Of a DNA stretch of 64,000 bases, positions 8,250 to 57,402 are shown in pieces. The stretch comes from Octopus vulgaris (Eukaryota). The position numbers were made by a program, and so were the translations under genes. Position 1 is the stretch's first letter; every line of letters begins with the position of its first letter. The stretch lies in NCBI GenBank assembly GCA_951406725.2, contig OX597815.1, positions 10,416,001-10,480,000 on the forward strand. The letters run 5' to 3'. The notes under the pieces are model-generated. The model saw only the letters and a list, made by a program, of their open reading frames with translations, was not told where the DNA came from and did not search any database.

Positions 8250-8870
8250 GTATGTATTTCGTTTGGCATGTTGTATGTCTTGTCTTTGTTACCAGCTTTC
8301 ACCTTCCGCAAATTCCAAATTTTATTTGGGTTCGCGGGAGGTACTGCCTCCAAAGCCATATCTTGTTGTTTGAATGCTCGAAATAAGGAGTAGAAGGACA
8401 GCCGACAACTGATGAACGGTCGTTTTTTTTATGTTACTTGTCTTGTTCTCTATTTGTTTCTTTCGTTCTTTGCGCACCCAACGTTATTTTCGTATTTCAT
8501 GTTGCTTACGTTTTGTGACGTCCTGTACCTATATATGCATACCTATACACACACATATGTAAGTATGTACATATGCGTGTATATATATATGCATTTTACC
8601 TTCGAAACGCGGAGTAGACGAAACGGGGGCGACTGAAGAAGGGGAATTTTCCTTGTGTTGTATGTCTGGTACCCTGTTTTTTTTCGTTGTTTAAAAGAAA
8701 TGTCCGTTTCCATGGTTCTGTTTTTATGTTTTCGTTTCTCATTGTGTTCGACGTTTTTTTGTGGTGTCCTGTACCTATATATGCATGTATATATACATAT
8801 AGATGTAGGTACGTACATATATGTATGTATATATGCATATGTTTTATTTATTATTTTGTTAGTATATATA
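8250..8870 (+). mobile_element. Two tandem pLTR-like units of the permuted-HHR family (about 8250-8590 and 8593-8870)
   Basis: Both share cGAAA..AGTAGA..CTGANGAA, a T-rich tract and gtcctgtacctatatatgcat; related to the direct repeats at 19466 and 20302; embedded in (TA)n. Confidence 0.7.
8356..8420 (+). ncRNA. Candidate non-circularly permuted hammerhead ribozyme
   Basis: ccata-TC(8361-62)-ttgttg...gctc-GAAA(8380-83)-taagg...cgacaa-CTGATGA(8409-15)-Acggt; stem I ttgttg/cgacaa, stem III ccataT/Ataagg. Confidence 0.6.
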
Positions 8871-14372: not shown

Positions 14373-15168
14373 ACCATTGATCATGTTGTCTCCAAATGCA
14401 GTCTTCTCAATTGATCATGTTGTCTCCAAATGCAGTCTTCTCAATTGATCATGTTGTCTCCAAATGCAGTCTTCTAGCGCCTACAGAGTACCTCAACAGG
14501 CATGATAGAGCTGCATAATATATTCACTGGGTAATTTGCAAAAACCTGGATGTGCCCCATGAAAAAAAATGGTGGGAACACAATCCACCTCCTGTGCTTG
14601 AAAATGACCACATCTCACTCCTCTGGAACTTCACCATTCAAACTGACAGAAAGATAGATGCAAATAGGCCAGACATCATATTGAAAGACTTCAGACAAAG
14701 AACATGCCTCCTCATTGATATGACTGTCCCAATCGATATAAACGTATCTGTCAAGACCTACCAAAAACTGAGCAAATATAAAGATCTTGAAATAGAAATC
14801 AGCAAAATGTGGAACCTGAAGACTGAAACAATACATGTTGTCATAGGTGCCCTGGGAATGATAGCGAAAGGGGCTGATTGCTACCTAACTCAGATACCAG
14901 GAAACCCCAAAATGGCAGAAATTCAAAAGATAGTGCTCATGGGAACTGGTCATATCCTACGCAAAATACTCTCTATATAATCCCAAGGTTTAAAACAAAC
15001 TTTTTTTTAAAATTTATGTATTAGACATTCACTAGTACAACACCAAAAAGACCCCAAATATATGGCACACTAGGCATAACAACAACGTGAACTTCCAACC
15101 TGTTGTCTCTTGAGGTCTCTGGGTGAGACTTGGAGCCAACTTGTATAGACATAAAGCAAAAGTCAAAC

Positions 15169-17100: not shown

Positions 17101-17314
17101 ACTCTCTCTTTTACTCTTTTACTTGTTTCAGTCATTTGACTGCGGCCATGCTGGGGCACCGCCTTTTTTCGAGCAAATCGACCCCGGGACTTATTCTTTG
17201 TAAGCCCAGTACTTATTCTATCGGTCTCTTTTGCCGAACCGCTAAGTGACGGGGACGTAAATACACCAGCATCGGTTGTCAAGCAATGCTAGGGGGACAA
17301 ACACAGACACACAA

Positions 17315-17349
<35 letters not shown>

Positions 17350-17516
17350 CATACGACAGGCTTCTTTCAGTTTCCGTCTACCAAATCCACTCACAAGGCT
17401 TTGGTCGGCCCGAGGCTATAGTAGAAGACATTTGCCTAAGATGCCACGCAGTGGGACTGAACCCGGAACCATGTAGTTCATAAGCAAGCTACTTACGACA
17501 CAGCCACTCCTACGCC
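17101..17516 (-). mobile_element. SINE family C, full length
   Basis: Head, internal (TA)/(TG) tract, tail catggccgcagtcaaatgactgaaacaagt(aaaagag)n. Confidence 0.92.
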
Positions 17517-17556
<40 letters not shown>

Positions 17557-19461: not shown

Positions 19462-19523
19462 ATATAAGATCTCAGAATTTTAATTGATTTGCTTTTCTCG
19501 GGAAGGAATTTTTTCATTCGAAG

Positions 19524-19588
19524 TATACGTCTCGCTTTTATCCTTCGAAACGTTTAGTAGATGAAACTTTAGCGACTGAAGAAGGGGA
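19524..19588 (+). ncRNA. Candidate non-circularly permuted hammerhead ribozyme
   Basis: tatacg-TC(19530-31)-tcgct...cttc-GAAA(19547-50)-cgttta...agcga-CTGAAGA(19576-82)-Agggg. Confidence 0.65.
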
Positions 19589-20358
19589 TTTTTCGTTGTG
19601 CTTATTGTCCTGTATCTCCTTTTTTTGCTTGTCTTGTTCCTTGGTTTGTGTCTATGTTTTTCGTCTCTCTATGTGTTCGACGTCCTTTTGGTGTCCTGTA
19701 CACATATATGCGTGTATATGTACATGTAGAGGTAGGTACGTACATACATGTTTATATATATGCATATATTTTATTAACATATTATACGACTAAACGCACG
19801 CACCCTATTAAGTAAGATTGTTCTGTTTATCAAGTTCGCCTTGATATTAACTCTCACGCGACTCTGCCTCTTTCTTTCTTTCTCTCCCATTCCCTTTTTC
19901 GTCCTTTTTCCCTCACTTAACTTGTCTCTTCCTCTCTCTTTCCCCCTCACTGTTCTTCATGGTCTCCTCGCACCATTCCCCTTCTTCTCTCTCTTCCTCT
20001 TGCTCCTCCTCCCCCATTCCCGTCGTCCATCTGCGACGTACTTCCGTCGTAACTGCTATCCCGTCTTTCCTCACCTGCCTTCTAAGGCCACTGGTCGACA
20101 TCTTCCTCTCTCGTCGTCCACTATAATCCAGCGTTTGCAATACTTTTTTCGTCTGGCGTTAACAGCCCTTCTTATCTTGTTCTCCTTGTCCTGTCTCTCA
20201 CTGTTATATATTTATTTTTCCACTGTTTATATATATATTTTTTACTGTTTATATGTTTGTACTGTCGTTACCGTCTTGCCTTTTTTTTACCCCTCCGCGA
20301 CAAGATCTCAGAATTTTAATTGATTTGCTTTTCTCGGGAAGGAATTTTTCATTCGAAG

Positions 20359-20423
20359 TATACGTCTCGCTTTTATCCTTCGAAACGTTTAGTAGATGAA
20401 ACTTTAGCGACTGAAGAAGGGGA
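20359..20423 (+). ncRNA. Candidate non-circularly permuted hammerhead ribozyme (second pLTR copy)
   Basis: Identical motif: TC 20365-66, GAAA 20382-85, CTGAAGA 20411-17. Confidence 0.65.
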
Positions 20424-20610
20424 TTTTTCGTTGTGCTTATTGTCCTGTATCTCCTTTTTTTGCTTGTCTTGTTCCTTGGTTTGTGTCTATGTTTTTCGTC
20501 TCTCTATGTGTTCGACGTCCTTTTGGTGTCCTGTACACATATATGCGTGTATATGTACATGTAGAGGTAGGTACGTACATACATGTTTATATATATGCAT
20601 ATATTTTATT

Positions 20611-20647
<37 letters not shown>

Positions 20648-20679
20648 GTGCATATATATATATGATGATATATATATAT

Positions 20680-21593: not shown

Positions 21594-21996
21594 TTTATCT
21601 GTTATCTTTTATCTTTTACTCGTTTCAGTCATTTGACTACGGCCATGCTGGAGCACCGCCTTTAGTCGAGCAAATCGACCCCGGGACTTATTCTTTGTAA
21701 GCCCAGTACTTATTCTATCGCTCTCTTTTTGCCGAACCGCTAAGTGATGGGGACGTAAACACACCAGCATTGGTTGTCAAGCAATGCTAGGGGGACAAAC
21801 ACAGACACACAAACACACTTGTATATATATATATACGACAGGCTTCTTTCAGTTTCCGTCTACCAAATCCATTCACAAGGCATTGGTCGGGCCGGGGCTA
21901 TAGCAGAAGACACTTGCCCAAGATGCCACGCAGTGGGACTGAACCCGGAGCCATGTGGTTGGTTAGCAAGCTACTTACCACACAGCCACTCCTGCG

Positions 21997-21998
<2 letters not shown>
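21592..21998 (-). mobile_element. SINE family C, full length
   Basis: Matches the family consensus. Confidence 0.92.
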
Positions 21999-22078
<80 letters not shown>

Positions 22079-22588: not shown

Positions 22589-22995
22589 GGCGGCGTGTTG
22601 GCAGACACGTTAGCACACCGGGCGAAATGCTTAGCGGTATTTCGTCTACCGTTACGTTCTGAGTTCAAATTCCGCCGAGGTCGACTTTGCCTTTCATCCT
22701 TTCGGGGTCGATTAAATAAGTACCAGTTACGCACTGGGGTCGATATAATCGACTTAATCCGTTTGTCTGTCCTTGTTTGTCCTCTCTGTGTTTAGCCCCT
22801 TGTGGGTAGTAAAGAAATAGGTATTTCGTCTGCTGCTACGTTCTCAGTTCAAATTCCGCCGAGGTCGACTTTGCCTTTCATCCTTTCGGGGTCGATATAT
22901 TAAGTACCAGTTACGCACTGGGGTCGACTTATTCCTTTTGTTTGTCCTTGTTTGTCCCCTCTGTGTGTAGCCCCTTGTGGGCAATAAAGAAATAA
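22589..22995 (+). mobile_element. SINE family M, tandem dimer
   Basis: Full copy followed by a 5'-truncated second copy from about 22820. Confidence 0.9.
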
Positions 22996-24741: not shown

Positions 24742-24970
24742 CGAGCTGGGCAGCATCGTTAGCACGCCGGGCGAAATGCTTAGCAGTATTTTACCCGTCG
24801 CTACGTTCTGAGTTCAAATTCCGCTGAGGTCGACTTTGCCTTTCATCCTTTCGGGGTCGATAAATTAAGTACCAGTTACACACTGGGGCCGATGTAATCG
24901 ACTTAATCCGTGTGTCTGTCCTTGTTTGTCTCCTCTGTGTTTAGCCACTTGTGGGCAATAAAGAAATAGA
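24742..24970 (+). mobile_element. SINE family M
   Basis: Matches the family consensus. Confidence 0.88.
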
Positions 24971-26104
24971 TAATTTGTTCTAGAATATAGTTGAGTTAAA
25001 TCTTTCGTTCACAATGCTATACAATAACATTAATGACATAGGAATCGAATCCAGCATTTTAAAATGTGATTTTTCATTCATAAAAACACATTAAATGCCT
25101 GACTTGAACAGTAAAAGAGGTTACGGTAATAAGAAACATTGTAATAAGTGATACACTATAACAGAATATTGGCCAAGAGGGGAAAAAAGAAGAGGTATAA
25201 AATATCTAAAACAAGAGGCAAAAAAAGAAACAAGCTTGATTTCCCACTCAGATAATGTCGGGTTTTCGCGAAACAGCGCAGTATTTGTACATTGATCCAA
25301 TTATGGCTGTTTGGTTAACAATCTCTCTTCGCAATGACGACGTTGCTGGTACAATCACACTGTGTGACATTTTGGAAAAAATATCTTGTGATAAGGCATT
25401 GAATTGATTAATGCATTATGAATGAACTTTTAGTGCGCGGAGACCCTACAGAAGCTAGTCATAAAAATAACTCATAACGTCTACTGGGATTCACTTTCGA
25501 TAGCAAAAAATAGTAAACAGAACAGAAACGAAAATAGATATTTCTGATACTGAGAAAAATGCATTGATACAATATGGCTCCTTTTACTCCTGATAAGATA
25601 TTTATTATCTGTATAATATAATATTCATACGATTTGTATCAAGGTATGTGTAGAGAAATTGAGAATGAGCTTAGATGTATATCTTGCAAACGGTGAAGAA
25701 TTACTACTTCAGCATTTAGCATCTGTTACTAATTTAGGTGTGTAAATATTGACAATTGAAACGAATATAGAACATTGTTAGGCTGAGATCTAGTAACAGA
25801 TAAGAAATTATGCTACTTCGTGAACATATTGAATTATATCCAAGAGAGAAATCAAAATGAAGGAATCTCAAAAGAAACAGATGGCTTCTACAAAGATTTG
25901 ATAGTTATTTATCAAACATTTCGACTTAGAGTACAACGGGTGCTGCACTCTAATCCTTGACTTCAGAAAGCTAGTTCTGAAAGTTAGTAAACTGTAATGA
26001 GACAATTTCTTTCAACATCTATGCAATCTATGTCAATAATATGATTTATAAGTGGACCCACTTATAAAATGGTGTTTATATTGGTTTCAAATTTTTGTAC
26101 CAGG

Positions 26105-26292
26105 CCAGCAACACCGGGGGATTAGGTAAGTCGATTACATCGACCCCAGTGTTAAACTGGTACTTATTTTATCTACCCCGAAAGGATGAAAGGCAACGTC
26201 GACCTCGGTGGTATTTGAACTCAGAACATAAAGTCGGACGAAATGCCGGTAAGCATTTTACCCAGCATGCTAACGATTCTGCCATCTCGCCA
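26105..26292 (-). mobile_element. SINE family M, diverged
   Basis: ccccgaaaggatgaaaggcaa..tttgaactcagaac. Confidence 0.82.
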
Positions 26293-44629: not shown

Positions 44630-45664
44630 ACATATTGTTGGTGTTCGTATGGCAGGCGCTAGCGTAACGAAAACAGCCGAAATGTTTGGCGTATCAAGAA
44701 GTACTGCCTCGAAAGTAATTACAGCCTTTGAGAAAGAGGGAAAAACCTCCTCGTCGAAACAAAAAAGCTTAAACTTTCAGATAGGGACCATCTTGCTCTT
44801 ACACGAATTGTTAGAAAGGATCACAAAAGTACAGTTACCAAAATTACTGCAGAACACCTCGACAACCCAATTTCCACAAAAGCTGTTCGCTGGGAGCTAC
44901 ACAAAGCTGGATTTCACAGGAGGGATGCAATCAGAAAACCACTACTTTCAAAAACAAAGATTGCAAAGTGTTTAGAATGGAGTAAAAACCTACAGAATTG
45001 GTCTCTAGAACAGTAGAAGAATGTTATTTTCTCGAACGAGCCATCATTTACCTTATTTCCGACCATCGGCCGAGTATACCTGTGGAGACAGCCAAAGGAA
45101 GCCTTTGATCCAGACTACTATCTTCCAACTGTTAAACATGGTGGAGGATCTGTGCTGATCTGGTGGGGAGCTATATCTTGGAAATCCGCCGGCCCAATGG
45201 TTTCCCTTCATGGCAAAATTTATAATCAAGACTATTTAAGCACTTTATCTGATCAAATTCGTCCTATGGTTGTGGAACTGTTTCCGGAGGGAAACGCAAC
45301 CTTTCAGGATGATAATGCACCAATTCACACAGCTAAAGTTGTTACTGAATGGCACGAGGAACATTTTAGTGAAATTGAACATCTTATCTGGCCACCACTG
45401 TCCCCAGATATCAATATTATTGAACATTTATGGTGCATTTTAGGAAAACAAATAAGGAGTCGATATCCTCCACCATAATCACTACAAGAATTGGAGACTG
45501 TTTTAGTTGAAGAATGGACAAGAATTCCTTTGGAAACAATTCAAACTTTGTACGAGTCAATACCTCGTAGAATTCAGGCTGTAATTACTGCCAAGGGCGG
45601 TCCTATCCCATATTAAAATAAATTTGTTTGAAATTTTAAGATATTTCCATTATTTTGTCCAACC

Positions 45665-52305: not shown

Positions 52306-52872
52306 TGAAACCCCTATATTGCCCAGGATATTAATCGTCTGGAAGCCGTTCAGCGACGTGCAACCAAGAGAATACTCTCCATCAAACATTTGCCATATTC
52401 TGAACGCCTTGCTTCCCTGGGCATGGACACATTGAAACTCCGACATCTGGCAGCTGACTTGGCAGACACCCATAAAATTATTAACCATCTTACAAACAAT
52501 AACTCTGAGCACCTTTTCAAACTCCATCTGTCTAACACCCGTGGACATGTTTACAAAGTCAGAAAACATCACAGCTCCCATGACTTTCGGAAACATTTTT
52601 TCACGCTAAGAGTTGCTGAAGCATGGAACAGACTGCCGGCATCAGTTGTTAGTTGTCGGAGCACAGCATCCTTCAAAACTTCCATGCTTCCTGAGATTCG
52701 CCAACACTACACCTGATTTTCTCCCCTCCATACACACGCAAGCATGTATCTGACTCATACACTGTTCACTTCCCAGACATTTGTACATTACTGCATATGC
52801 TTTATACGCACTTTTGACAAGTTGTGGTGCACCTGAGCACTGTATACAATAATTTCATTATTATTATTATTA
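52306..52872 (+). mobile_element. CR1-type LINE 3' end
   Basis: DINRLEAVQRRATK..YSERLASLG..TRGHVYKV..RKHFFTLRVAEAWNRLP; (tta)n tail; tail fragment also at about 26838-26880. Confidence 0.9.
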
Positions 52873-55669: not shown

Positions 55670-57402
55670 GGTTTGTCAAGAACGTAAGAAATAACTATAT
55701 TAAGTGAAGCAGGAAGACATCATCGAAACATAAGGATCAAAGAAGATGAGATGGGCAGAATTGAGGAAATCTACATCAGGTGGCCGAACAAATTATGATG
55801 CTGTTGCTGTGATTATGATTGCAGTAGTGTTGGTAGTGATGCTTTTTGGGTTTGATATTGGTGGCTGTTTTCATGGGCTCGAGAACAGGGGTTGCAGGGG
55901 GTACAAGCGCACCTCCTGATTGGTGGGAGAGGAGTGATCAGTTGATGGGATTGTGTTGAATCAAAGGAAAACGGTTTAGGATGGTATATAAAAAATGGCG
56001 TGGAACCATTTTTGATGCATATCGAAAAGTTCGGCATCATCAAAACTGATAACTGTGTTGAGAAAGTAATTTAAAAAGGAAGAAATCATGAAAAGCAAAT
56101 GGCATGGAAAGGGAAAAAATATACTGTTTGTGAGTAAGAGAAACGTGTGCAAAGAGAGATCCAGAAGGCCGGTGGTTATGGATCCGAGGGAGTAACTTGA
56201 AGATAGAAACAGAAGCACTTATATGCACGGCATAAGAATACGCATTGAGGGCAAATTATATGAAGTGCAGAATTGCTAAAACAACTTAGCAGAATGTAGA
56301 ATGTGTGGAGAGAGTGGGGAAATAGTGTGGCACATTGTTAGTGAATGCTCGAAATTTACACAAAGTTAATATAAAAGGTGATATGACAATGTAACAAGAA
56401 TGATCCATTTGGAGCTTTGTGGAAATTATAGCCTAGAAAAATCCAAGACATGATATGACCAAATCACAGAATGAGTTATTGAGAATGAGGATTGCAAAAT
56501 TCTGTGGGTTGCAATAGTTCAGTGAGACCATCTGATTAACCATCGAAAGCATGGCATTGTTGTGGTAAACAGAAAAAAAATTGTTGTTGGCATCCTTTTT
56601 GTCTCGGGAGACAATGGAGTTGCGCATAAAGTAGTCTTGTCCGGCTTCTACATTTCATGTCCTGATACATTTCCTGCTGTGGCTGTATAGTCCTATCCTG
56701 GACAAACACTCCCTCCGGCAGGTACCGCAAATGTAGCGAAGACTGTTCCTGGCTGGTTGTAATGCCATAGTTTCTTGTTGACGTCTTTTCTTGTCTTTCC
56801 ATTTCTCCTCTCTCTCTCTGTCACTCCTTTGTATTCCCTCTCTTACGGTACGTCGCCAGTCTCCACGGTTGCCGGCAACTGCCTCCCAACCGCTAATATT
56901 GATGTTGTAGGCCTTCATGTCCCTTTTGCAAACATCCTTGTAACGTAAGAGCGGTCTACCCACAGACCTAGTACCCCTAGCAAGGTCTCCGTAGAGTATG
57001 TCCTTGGGGATTCTGTCATCTTTCATACGGCTAACATGCCCAAGCCATCTCAATACTTGTCTGATAATTGATATAGCCTGTCCTGGTGACAACAGAGTTG
57101 AAAAGAGAGAAGAAAAAATGAACAACGATGCTGAATTGAAGTGGGAAATACGCAAGTTGTGGGGAATGACGGAAGCAAACGTGATAGCAGTAGTGATTGG
57201 TGTACTTGAAAGTATCAGTGCCCAACTTCCAGCATGGCTGGAAAAGACTGCAGCGAATGTAAAGGTGGCGCGTTTACAAAAATCATTATTGCTTTGAGTA
57301 TGATTAGTAAATAGGTCTCACCTTAATCTGCTGGCTGTGGACAGCTAACAATTTCCATCATACCCAGTAAAATAAAGCTGAGATTTTTAAATAATAATAA
57401 TG

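Follow-up and report, generated by a model that had tools for sequence, protein, structure and literature searches.

Putative hammerhead ribozyme of rearranged block order in a non-coding Penelope-type retroelement of Octopus vulgaris

Two direct repeats in a 64,000-nt stretch of the Octopus vulgaris genome (contig OX597815.1, positions 10,416,001 to 10,480,000; hereafter the window) carry a real hammerhead core in non-circularly permuted order, as confirmed in their letters. Taken as a whole, the RNA is probably best explained as a core in the block order of type SGC, with stem II made by an upstream strand, that would cut itself 3′ of GUC (after C19531 and C20366). Here, we report the core, the element that carries it, the predicted fold and a pile-up of 5′ ends at the predicted cut.

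The core in the window

On the + strand, the first repeat has the cut-site triplet G19529-T19530-C19531, GAAA at 19547 to 19550 and CTGAAGA at 19576 to 19582; in the second, the triplet lies at 20364 to 20366, GAAA at 20382 to 20385 and CTGAAGA at 20411 to 20417. The repeats (19466 to 19782 and 20302 to 20617) are identical except for one T. Their order is UH, GAAA, CUGANGA and not the CUGANGA, GAAA, UH of types I, II and III, just as an initial sequence-only reading of this DNA had stated for both repeats. Its three stems can also pair at the junction positions, with coordinates that hold: stem III (ACGT 19527 to 19530 with ACGT 19550 to 19553), stem I (TCGCT 19532 to 19536 with AGCGA 19571 to 19575) and a downstream stem II (CTTC 19543 to 19546 with GGGG 19584 to 19587, two G-U pairs, after an extra A19583). 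Standard hammerhead searches miss the motif, as had been foreseen. Rfam reported nothing in the window at the gathering score and, at an E value of ≤1 on six loci, no hammerhead family, only TA-repeat noise. Nested folding also fails on the motif, as crossing helices would lead one to expect, and shuffles do equally well (z, +1.3 to +2.4).

The features of the window are as follows; stems and cut sites are predicted.

19466..20620, + strand: non-autonomous retroelement copy, family A (also F4); 1.39 units of an 835-nt U-rich non-coding unit, 5′-truncated, 3′ end fixed
19466..19782, + strand: first direct repeat (a pLTR in the sequence-only reading); overlap of a partial tandem
20302..20617, + strand: second direct repeat; terminates at the element's 3′ end
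19502..19507, + strand: strand U of stem II*, GAAGGA, with G19502 as G10.1; partner 19541 to 19546
19512..19518, + strand: 5′ strand of a fourth helix, P4; partner 19560 to 19566; equivalent of the type SGC stem I-stem II helix
19527..19536, + strand: block S (stem III 5′ strand, GUC, stem I 5′ strand); predicted cut 3′ of C19531
19541..19553, + strand: block G (stem II strand TCCTTC, GAAA at 19547 to 19550, stem III 3′ strand)
19560..19566, + strand: P4 3′ strand; a conserved AGTAGA stretch lies just before it, and tandem GA/GA lies between P4 and stem III (K-turn-like, tentative in family A)
19571..19583, + strand: stem I 3′ strand, CUGAAGA core (19576 to 19582), extra A
19584..19597, + strand: downstream strand D; G-U-rich alternative partner of the stem II strand and, in family A, also of the P4 3′ strand
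20338..20422, + strand: second ribozyme copy (predicted); U at 20338 to 20343, cut 3′ of C20366, GAAA at 20382 to 20385, core at 20411 to 20417, D at 20419 to 20422
20618..20660, + strand: (TA)n target run, 3′ junction
8338..8560, + strand: decayed copy of the related family F1, same fold; predicted cut 3′ of C8362, GAAA at 8380 to 8383, core at 8409 to 8415
8595..8870, + strand: copy of the related family F0; 5′ end about 5 nt 3′ of the predicted cut, GAAA at 8604 to 8607, core at 8633 to 8639

The F1 and F0 copies at 8338 to 8870 stand back to back, and TA runs end both. Elsewhere, the window holds a fragment of a Tc1/mariner-like DDE_3 transposase (45017 to 45478; Pfam E value, 9e-12), three frames that by eye resemble C-terminal fragments of LINE-type proteins with no convincing Pfam match (14519 to 14980, 52309 to 52716 and 56655 to 57317), and SINE-like dispersed repeats of 85 to 93% identity, some of them inverted (17110 to 17520, 21607 to 22002, 22600 to 22994, 24749 to 24978 and 26127 to 26291).

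The element and its families

Judged by its sequence, the window repeat is a young, non-coding and non-autonomous Penelope-type retroelement, with a unit that measures 835 nt between successive cut sites. When the genome was searched with the element at the DNA level, there were 1,261 first-look candidates, and the 40 scored matches had 98 to 100% identity. All 23 distinct insertions of family A, counted in 30 fetched loci (the top matches spanning the ribozyme), share one 3′ end, about 250 nt 3′ of the cut site and joined to (TA)n. Their 5′ ends are variable, their lengths run from 0.5 to 2.5 units (20 of the 23 exceed one unit), and one has an inverted piece attached. Inverted 5′ pieces joined head to head, typical of Penelope-type insertion, were also seen in copies L040, L048, L070, L078, L084 and L009-L010. 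The window copy holds 1.39 units; the "317-bp pLTR" is therefore an overlap left by 5′ truncation, with no fixed 5′ border.

The fixed 3′ end, 5′ truncation, partial tandems, 5′ inversions and (TA)n target are those of a non-autonomous Penelope-like element. The anatomy described in the available parts of Craig 2021 (PMC8557442) and of Cervera 2014 is matched by family A, save for the missing open reading frame. The two long + strand frames of the unit (181 and 132 amino acids) had no Pfam match, and the frame with PLE RT and GIY-YIG of an autonomous PLE was not found in them. The Penelope setting given in the sequence-only reading thus stands for the ends, the tandems, the inverted pieces and the target, but the element is non-coding rather than a coding one between pLTRs. 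Like a non-LTR retrozyme, it is a non-coding tandem unit with one predicted hammerhead each; unlike one, it lacks a type I hammerhead.

The unit is 42% U and, as a predicted circle, folds at −141 kcal/mol (15 shuffles, −118 ± 6) with 44% of it paired. Family A copies are young (98 to 99% identical). Contigs from four sequencing runs of four organisms cover the unit partially, with variant letters, and contigs of this kind cannot show ends, strand or circles. The relatives at 8338 to 8560 and 8595 to 8870 had 2,805 and 4,257 genome candidates, and the pattern TCGAAA-N18-32-CTGANGAWG had 11,939 genome hits, against 366 for the same pattern read backwards as a control. When 180 cores taken from 218 loci were clustered, ten families with the fold emerged, along with two small chance clusters and 18 singletons. 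Singleton cores in S-G-C order, from further families, include those in L071 (minus strand, near 265 to 416), L171 (minus strand, near 648 to 798 and 2309 to 2458), L153 and L168.

Conservation and predicted fold

The core (C3 U4 G5 A6 N7 G8 A9, G12 A13 A14 A15.1 and U16.1 H17) is invariant except for N7 in all ten family majorities, where H17 is C, A or U and never G. Covariation, the check proposed along with the motif, is found in stems I and III: stem III positions 1 to 4 pair in 40 of 40 cases and stem I positions 1 to 5 in 50 of 50 (ten majorities), with several pair types. In shuffled upstream sequence, a cut site with both of these stems arises at p values of 5e-5 to 0.016 (10/10 majorities), tests that are not independent because the families are related.

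The strand directly 5′ of GAAA has, in every family, a Watson-Crick partner 35 to 44 nt upstream, 5′ of the cut site. The resulting helix, II*, reads GAAGG/CCTTC, GAGCA/TGCTC, GACACC/GGTGTC or GGCT/AGCC across families, and its positions 1 to 4 pair in 10/10 family majorities (39 of 40 pairs Watson-Crick). A few bases past U, another strand pairs with the stretch just before the stem I 3′ strand to make P4. Stems III, I and II* are 96% paired in an alignment of 17 copies from seven families, with 11 of 15 pairs changed on both sides; none of 500 shuffles attains this score, and slid registers reach 34 to 51%. P4 shows two-sided changes at five of seven pairs (12 copies, five families). The copies in both alignments were those nearest their own family majority, out of the 180 cores, and F2, F8 and F9 were left out of pair counting because MAFFT misregistered their blocks (27-copy alignment). 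As copies nearest the majority were used and related sequences are able to beat shuffles, the slid-register control matters more. Chance tests within single families are modest (below 0.05 in 7/10 for II* and in 5/10 for P4, which stands at 0.21 in family A). Stem II as first drawn is a possible pairing, but the upstream strand pairs better, and the fourth helix had been overlooked.

P4 and stem III are predicted to form one long hairpin (−8 to −20 kcal/mol), the loop of which holds the cut site and GAAA. Each flank of the hairpin is able to pair back to the loop over 4 to 6 bp, the 5′ flank as II* and the 3′ flank as stem I, bringing CUGAAGA with it. The rearranged order had been thought to call for trans or dimer assembly as one of two options; this is not needed in the predicted cis fold of a single copy with the upstream strand. 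The arrangement shares three features with type SGC: blocks in the order S, G, C, a link of 0 to 6 nt between stem I and stem II in ten families, and a helix joining the far ends of these stems, which is P4 via the upstream strand. A kink-turn consists of a canonical stem, a 3-nt bulge and tandem G-A and A-G pairs. The G-A-rich loop between P4 and stem III fits this consensus in F2 and F8, in family A only in the opposite polarity, and is GA/GA with a variable bulge in the other families. In the jellyfish Morbakka, the strand that follows the core was seen by eye to pair with the flank preceding U as a closing helix, which is inconsistent in the O. vulgaris families.

Upstream or downstream stem II

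For family A, the upstream and downstream strands are both candidate partners in stem II, and sequence does not decide which is the catalytic one. By duplex energy, strand U makes stem II at −7.3 and P4 at −4.6 kcal/mol; strand D makes them at −4.5 and −5.9 kcal/mol.

The RNA could be a plain type SGC hammerhead, with the GGGG after CUGAAGA-A as catalytic stem II and the upstream strand as an attenuator until it is displaced or removed. We consider this unlikely. In the main clade, all 68 cells of the downstream stem II are paired in exact register after one extra base, an unpaired base at the same place is known from PLE hammerheads (Cervera 2014, in the part available), type SGC is described as validated in vitro in the accessible text of Eckert 2023 (PMC10085705), and the downstream strand of family A can make a 7-bp P4 too. 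Only one pair changes on both sides, a C-G to G-U swap at position 4, and G-rich strands pair easily with pyrimidines, so that slid registers still reach 53 to 84%. The downstream strand does better than shuffles in 2/10 families for stem II, family A being one of the two, and in 0/10 for P4; it forms its own hairpin in 5/10 families, and in F2 and F8 it is mismatched or lies 3 to 4 nt out of register. Of the downstream stem II pairs, 43% are Watson-Crick by a rough per-copy count, against 79% for II*. (This count used fixed offsets on 33 of 49 long copies and mis-set the cut site in about half, and its figures for stems I and III, 70% and 58%, were left unused.) By eye, the downstream pairing is also absent from six Naiad elements outside the cephalopods (see below). 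Finally, the stronger upstream strand is transcribed first, and a ribozyme attenuated in this way would rarely cut. We retain the upstream strand as the probable partner in stem II.

5′ ends at the predicted cut

For the footprint sample, a pattern lying 3′ of the ribozyme was matched blind to the ribozyme, and the first 100 of its 1,231 matches were used; families F0, F3, F5 and F6-like are represented, and family A is not. The 5′ ends were mapped by anchored extension, as BLAST-based calling overshot through TA runs. Going upstream, the bins held 2, 4, 13, 26 (G12 to cut+1), 5, 1, 3 and 2 ends, and 44 of the 100 copies ran further. The 16 nt 3′ of the predicted cut thus hold 26 ends against 5 just upstream (p about 0.003), and the 10 nt on either side hold 19 (3′ side) and 3 (p about 0.005). 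A core-anchored sample gave 22 and 4 (loci partly overlapping, two of them from family A), and a listing of TA junctions by eye showed the same skew. About four of the near-cut ends resemble internal deletions, and the ends extend over as much as 30 nt on the 3′ side of the cut. The rate of 5′ ends falls at the predicted cut, and 19 ends lie 5′ of the stem II strand, the last helix strand that the RT must displace.

Stalling of the RT on helices should cease past that strand; with 19 ends beyond it and a drop at the cut, cleaved templates are the simplest reading, and the pile-up is likely the footprint of cleavage. Many templates would have had their end at the cut, with loss of a few bases during joining; others would have run continuously across it, as a circle or an uncut multimer. 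We think it improbable that the fold of family A is real but belongs to a non-working ribozyme, be it a relic or a conserved RNA structure that binds protein or pauses the RT, with 5′ ends due to RT stalling. Across ten families, its catalytic letters are invariant and its helix letters covary, no majority has G at H17, and the 19 ends in the 10 nt next to the cut lie 5′ of the last helix strand, where the rate falls. Such a reading would fit the read-through of the site in 44 of the 100 copies, the failure of nested folding to find a structure, and 8 of 9 predicted retrozyme dimers without cleavage in the available text of Li 2026 (bioRxiv 10.64898/2026.07.22.740005).

Proposed mechanism

In the self-cutting reading with the upstream stem II, the RNA would be type SGC with its I-II helix, made into a ring and then opened anew between A9 and G10.1, and the rest of the element would hang from that junction. 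The G-A-rich internal loop, which by sequence is a K-turn in two families, would bend the hairpin so far that base and loop meet. Every part has been transcribed by the time CUGAAGA ends, so cutting can be co-transcriptional and in cis. In a partial tandem, two cuts would free an 835-nt monomer; helices II*, P4 and III would hold the 5′ product and favour re-joining of the monomer ends into a circle. A Penelope-type RT/GIY-YIG protein would then prime at the (TA)n, about 250 nt beyond the cut on its 3′ side, copying cut RNA into short copies that end at the cut and a continuous circular or uncut template into copies of 1 to 2.5 units. The G-U-rich downstream strand would act as a weaker, tethered competitor that takes over after cleavage and frees the 5′ product.

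It is highly improbable that the core is instead assembled between two copies in canonical cyclic order (one unit giving the cut site and CUGAAGA, the following unit giving GAAA): tandem copies are common and minimal PLE hammerheads act as dimers (Cervera 2014, available part), but stem III is a normal 4- to 7-bp helix and no short palindrome, P4 and stem III make a strong nested hairpin inside one copy (−8 to −20 kcal/mol), and many copies and Naiad 3′ ends are single.

Naiads and the mobilising partner

Naiads, a group of PLEs, are described in the accessible parts of Craig 2021 (PMC8557442) as being without canonical hammerheads, some being flagged "core" or "half core", one of these in Octopus. 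Part of the 54 consensi in its supplement was read by eye, which is not a census. The 3′ ends of Naiad_Obim and Naiad_Ovul have II*, P4, stem III and stem I in the same order as the window. Outside the cephalopods (supplement S5), the helices II*, P4, III and I measure 6, 16, 7 and only 2 bp in the ctenophore Beroe; 6, 10, 8 and 6 in three Acropora corals, one of which has a mismatch in II*; 5, 8, 5 and 4 in Naiad-2 of the jellyfish Morbakka; and 6, 10, 3 to 6 and 5 in the acanthocephalan Pomphorhynchus. A G after CUGANGA that could pair with C11.1 was not seen by eye in these six consensi; the downstream stem II cannot form there, and the upstream strand pairs instead. In Pomphorhynchus and Morbakka, the strand after CUGANGA can, by eye, pair with the cut-site region in one and with the flank upstream of II* in the other; by this reading, the competitor strand differs by lineage. 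The Euprymna consensus showed stems I and III alone, with no stem II seen; no core of this kind was seen by eye in the Omin, Adux, Dcar and Naiad-1_Skow consensi, and nematode Naiads look canonical in order.

The Naiad motif had 300 pattern hits in the O. vulgaris genome (control, 0). Of 30 loci selected by a Naiad-type RT fragment, 17 have the motif downstream of the RT on the same strand. Alignment of family A with the local Naiad 3′ end is no better than with shuffles (p = 0.13), and what they share is the ribozyme fold only. All 89 matches to a 74-amino-acid Naiad-type RT fragment are broken, with a longest open frame of 292 amino acids. The search for a partner scored 150 of 6,136 GIY-YIG candidates, and a distant young Naiad may be missed by it. 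It yielded a young, intact PLE of about 4.8 kb (L121, 430 to 5672; L124, 244 to 5460) with the full frame open in many copies. An upstream open reading frame of about 480 amino acids is followed by a 781-amino-acid RT plus GIY-YIG frame, and the element ends in (TA)n. By its Cys linker it is Neptune-like (named after Craig 2021, accessible part), and its terminal repeat of 450 to 500 bp contained no CUGANGA and no Rfam ribozyme match. Family A has 3′ end similarity neither to it nor to the local Naiad; the Neptune-like PLE may nonetheless mobilise family A. A second RT-GIY-YIG family with an open frame of 574 amino acids was seen at L126, 2582 to 4306.

Relation to known systems

Rearranged hammerheads have been published already, as the sequence-only reading stated. 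Type SGC, as set out in the available text of Eckert 2023 (PMC10085705), consists of S, a short link, G, a link and stem I-CUGANGA-stem II, with a helix joining the far ends of I and II, and this connectivity cleaves in cis. The window RNA is like type SGC (HRIMA-1 and the SGC variants) in order, short stem I-II link, far-end helix and all core letters. In that same text, non-circular hammerheads come solely from metatranscriptomes, metagenomes and one bacterial candidate, and six permutations are counted, the A9/G10.1 junction being taken as uninterruptible. By its predicted wiring, the window RNA falls outside these six published permutations. Core insertions that impair hammerhead activity are reported in Perreault 2011. 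Literature searches, with most subscription papers outside their scope, turned up neither a permuted hammerhead from an animal genome nor a ribozyme in Naiads, and no report or test of a hammerhead with the core opened at A9/G10.1; the accessible part of Forgia 2023 (PMC10162972) has nothing on a core-opened variant.

Family A resembles Naiads (Craig 2021, PMC8557442, in part) in (TA)n targeting, partial tandems, inverted 5′ pieces and the same predicted ribozyme fold, which can be read in eight or more published 3′ ends and, in the O. vulgaris genome, comes after remnants of a Naiad-type RT. Unlike them, it has no open reading frame and no 3′ likeness to the local Naiad, and it is far younger than the broken Naiad remnants. 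Animal non-LTR retrozymes are defined by type I hammerheads in the parts seen of Cervera and de la Pena 2020 (PMC7229834) and Li et al. 2026 (bioRxiv 10.64898/2026.07.22.740005); they too are non-coding tandem units, each carrying one hammerhead, and PLE proteins are assumed to mobilise them via a circle. Retrozymes are mostly 150 to 450 nt long, with highly self-paired circles, whereas family A is 835 nt, U-rich, 44% paired in its predicted circle, fixed at its 3′ end and equipped with a permuted ribozyme. With the PLE hammerheads of Cervera 2014 (available part), it shares a hammerhead in a terminal repeat and a model of cleavage, circularisation and more-than-unit copying; those have canonical cyclic order and depend on dimers, whereas family A has a full, monomeric double-pseudoknot fold by prediction.

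Implications

Taking these lines jointly, we lean slightly towards a seventh natural hammerhead wiring, in which the chain would enter and leave between A9 and G10.1, CUGANGA would be detached from stem II, and a retroelement would be plugged into the core. It would be the ribozyme that Naiads have seemed to lack, in a clade that reaches from ctenophores to octopus, and would be carried by about 11,500 non-coding passenger copies in the O. vulgaris genome and active in vivo, according to the 5′ ends, with exchange of the upstream and downstream strands choosing between circle joining and product release.

If this is true, the hammerhead, the most studied small ribozyme, extends past the six permutations that Eckert 2023 held possible, and its non-circular permutations, so far from unnamed environmental RNA, are present at high copy number in animal genomes. 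The absence of hammerheads published for Naiad retroelements would be overturned, and descriptor-based counts of animal ribozymes would be short by a large class. The need for the A9-G10.1 link in catalysis and the cutting of templates by PLE ribozymes in vivo become testable, and the pile-up of 5′ ends would offer a genome-scale readout of template cutting by PLE ribozymes.
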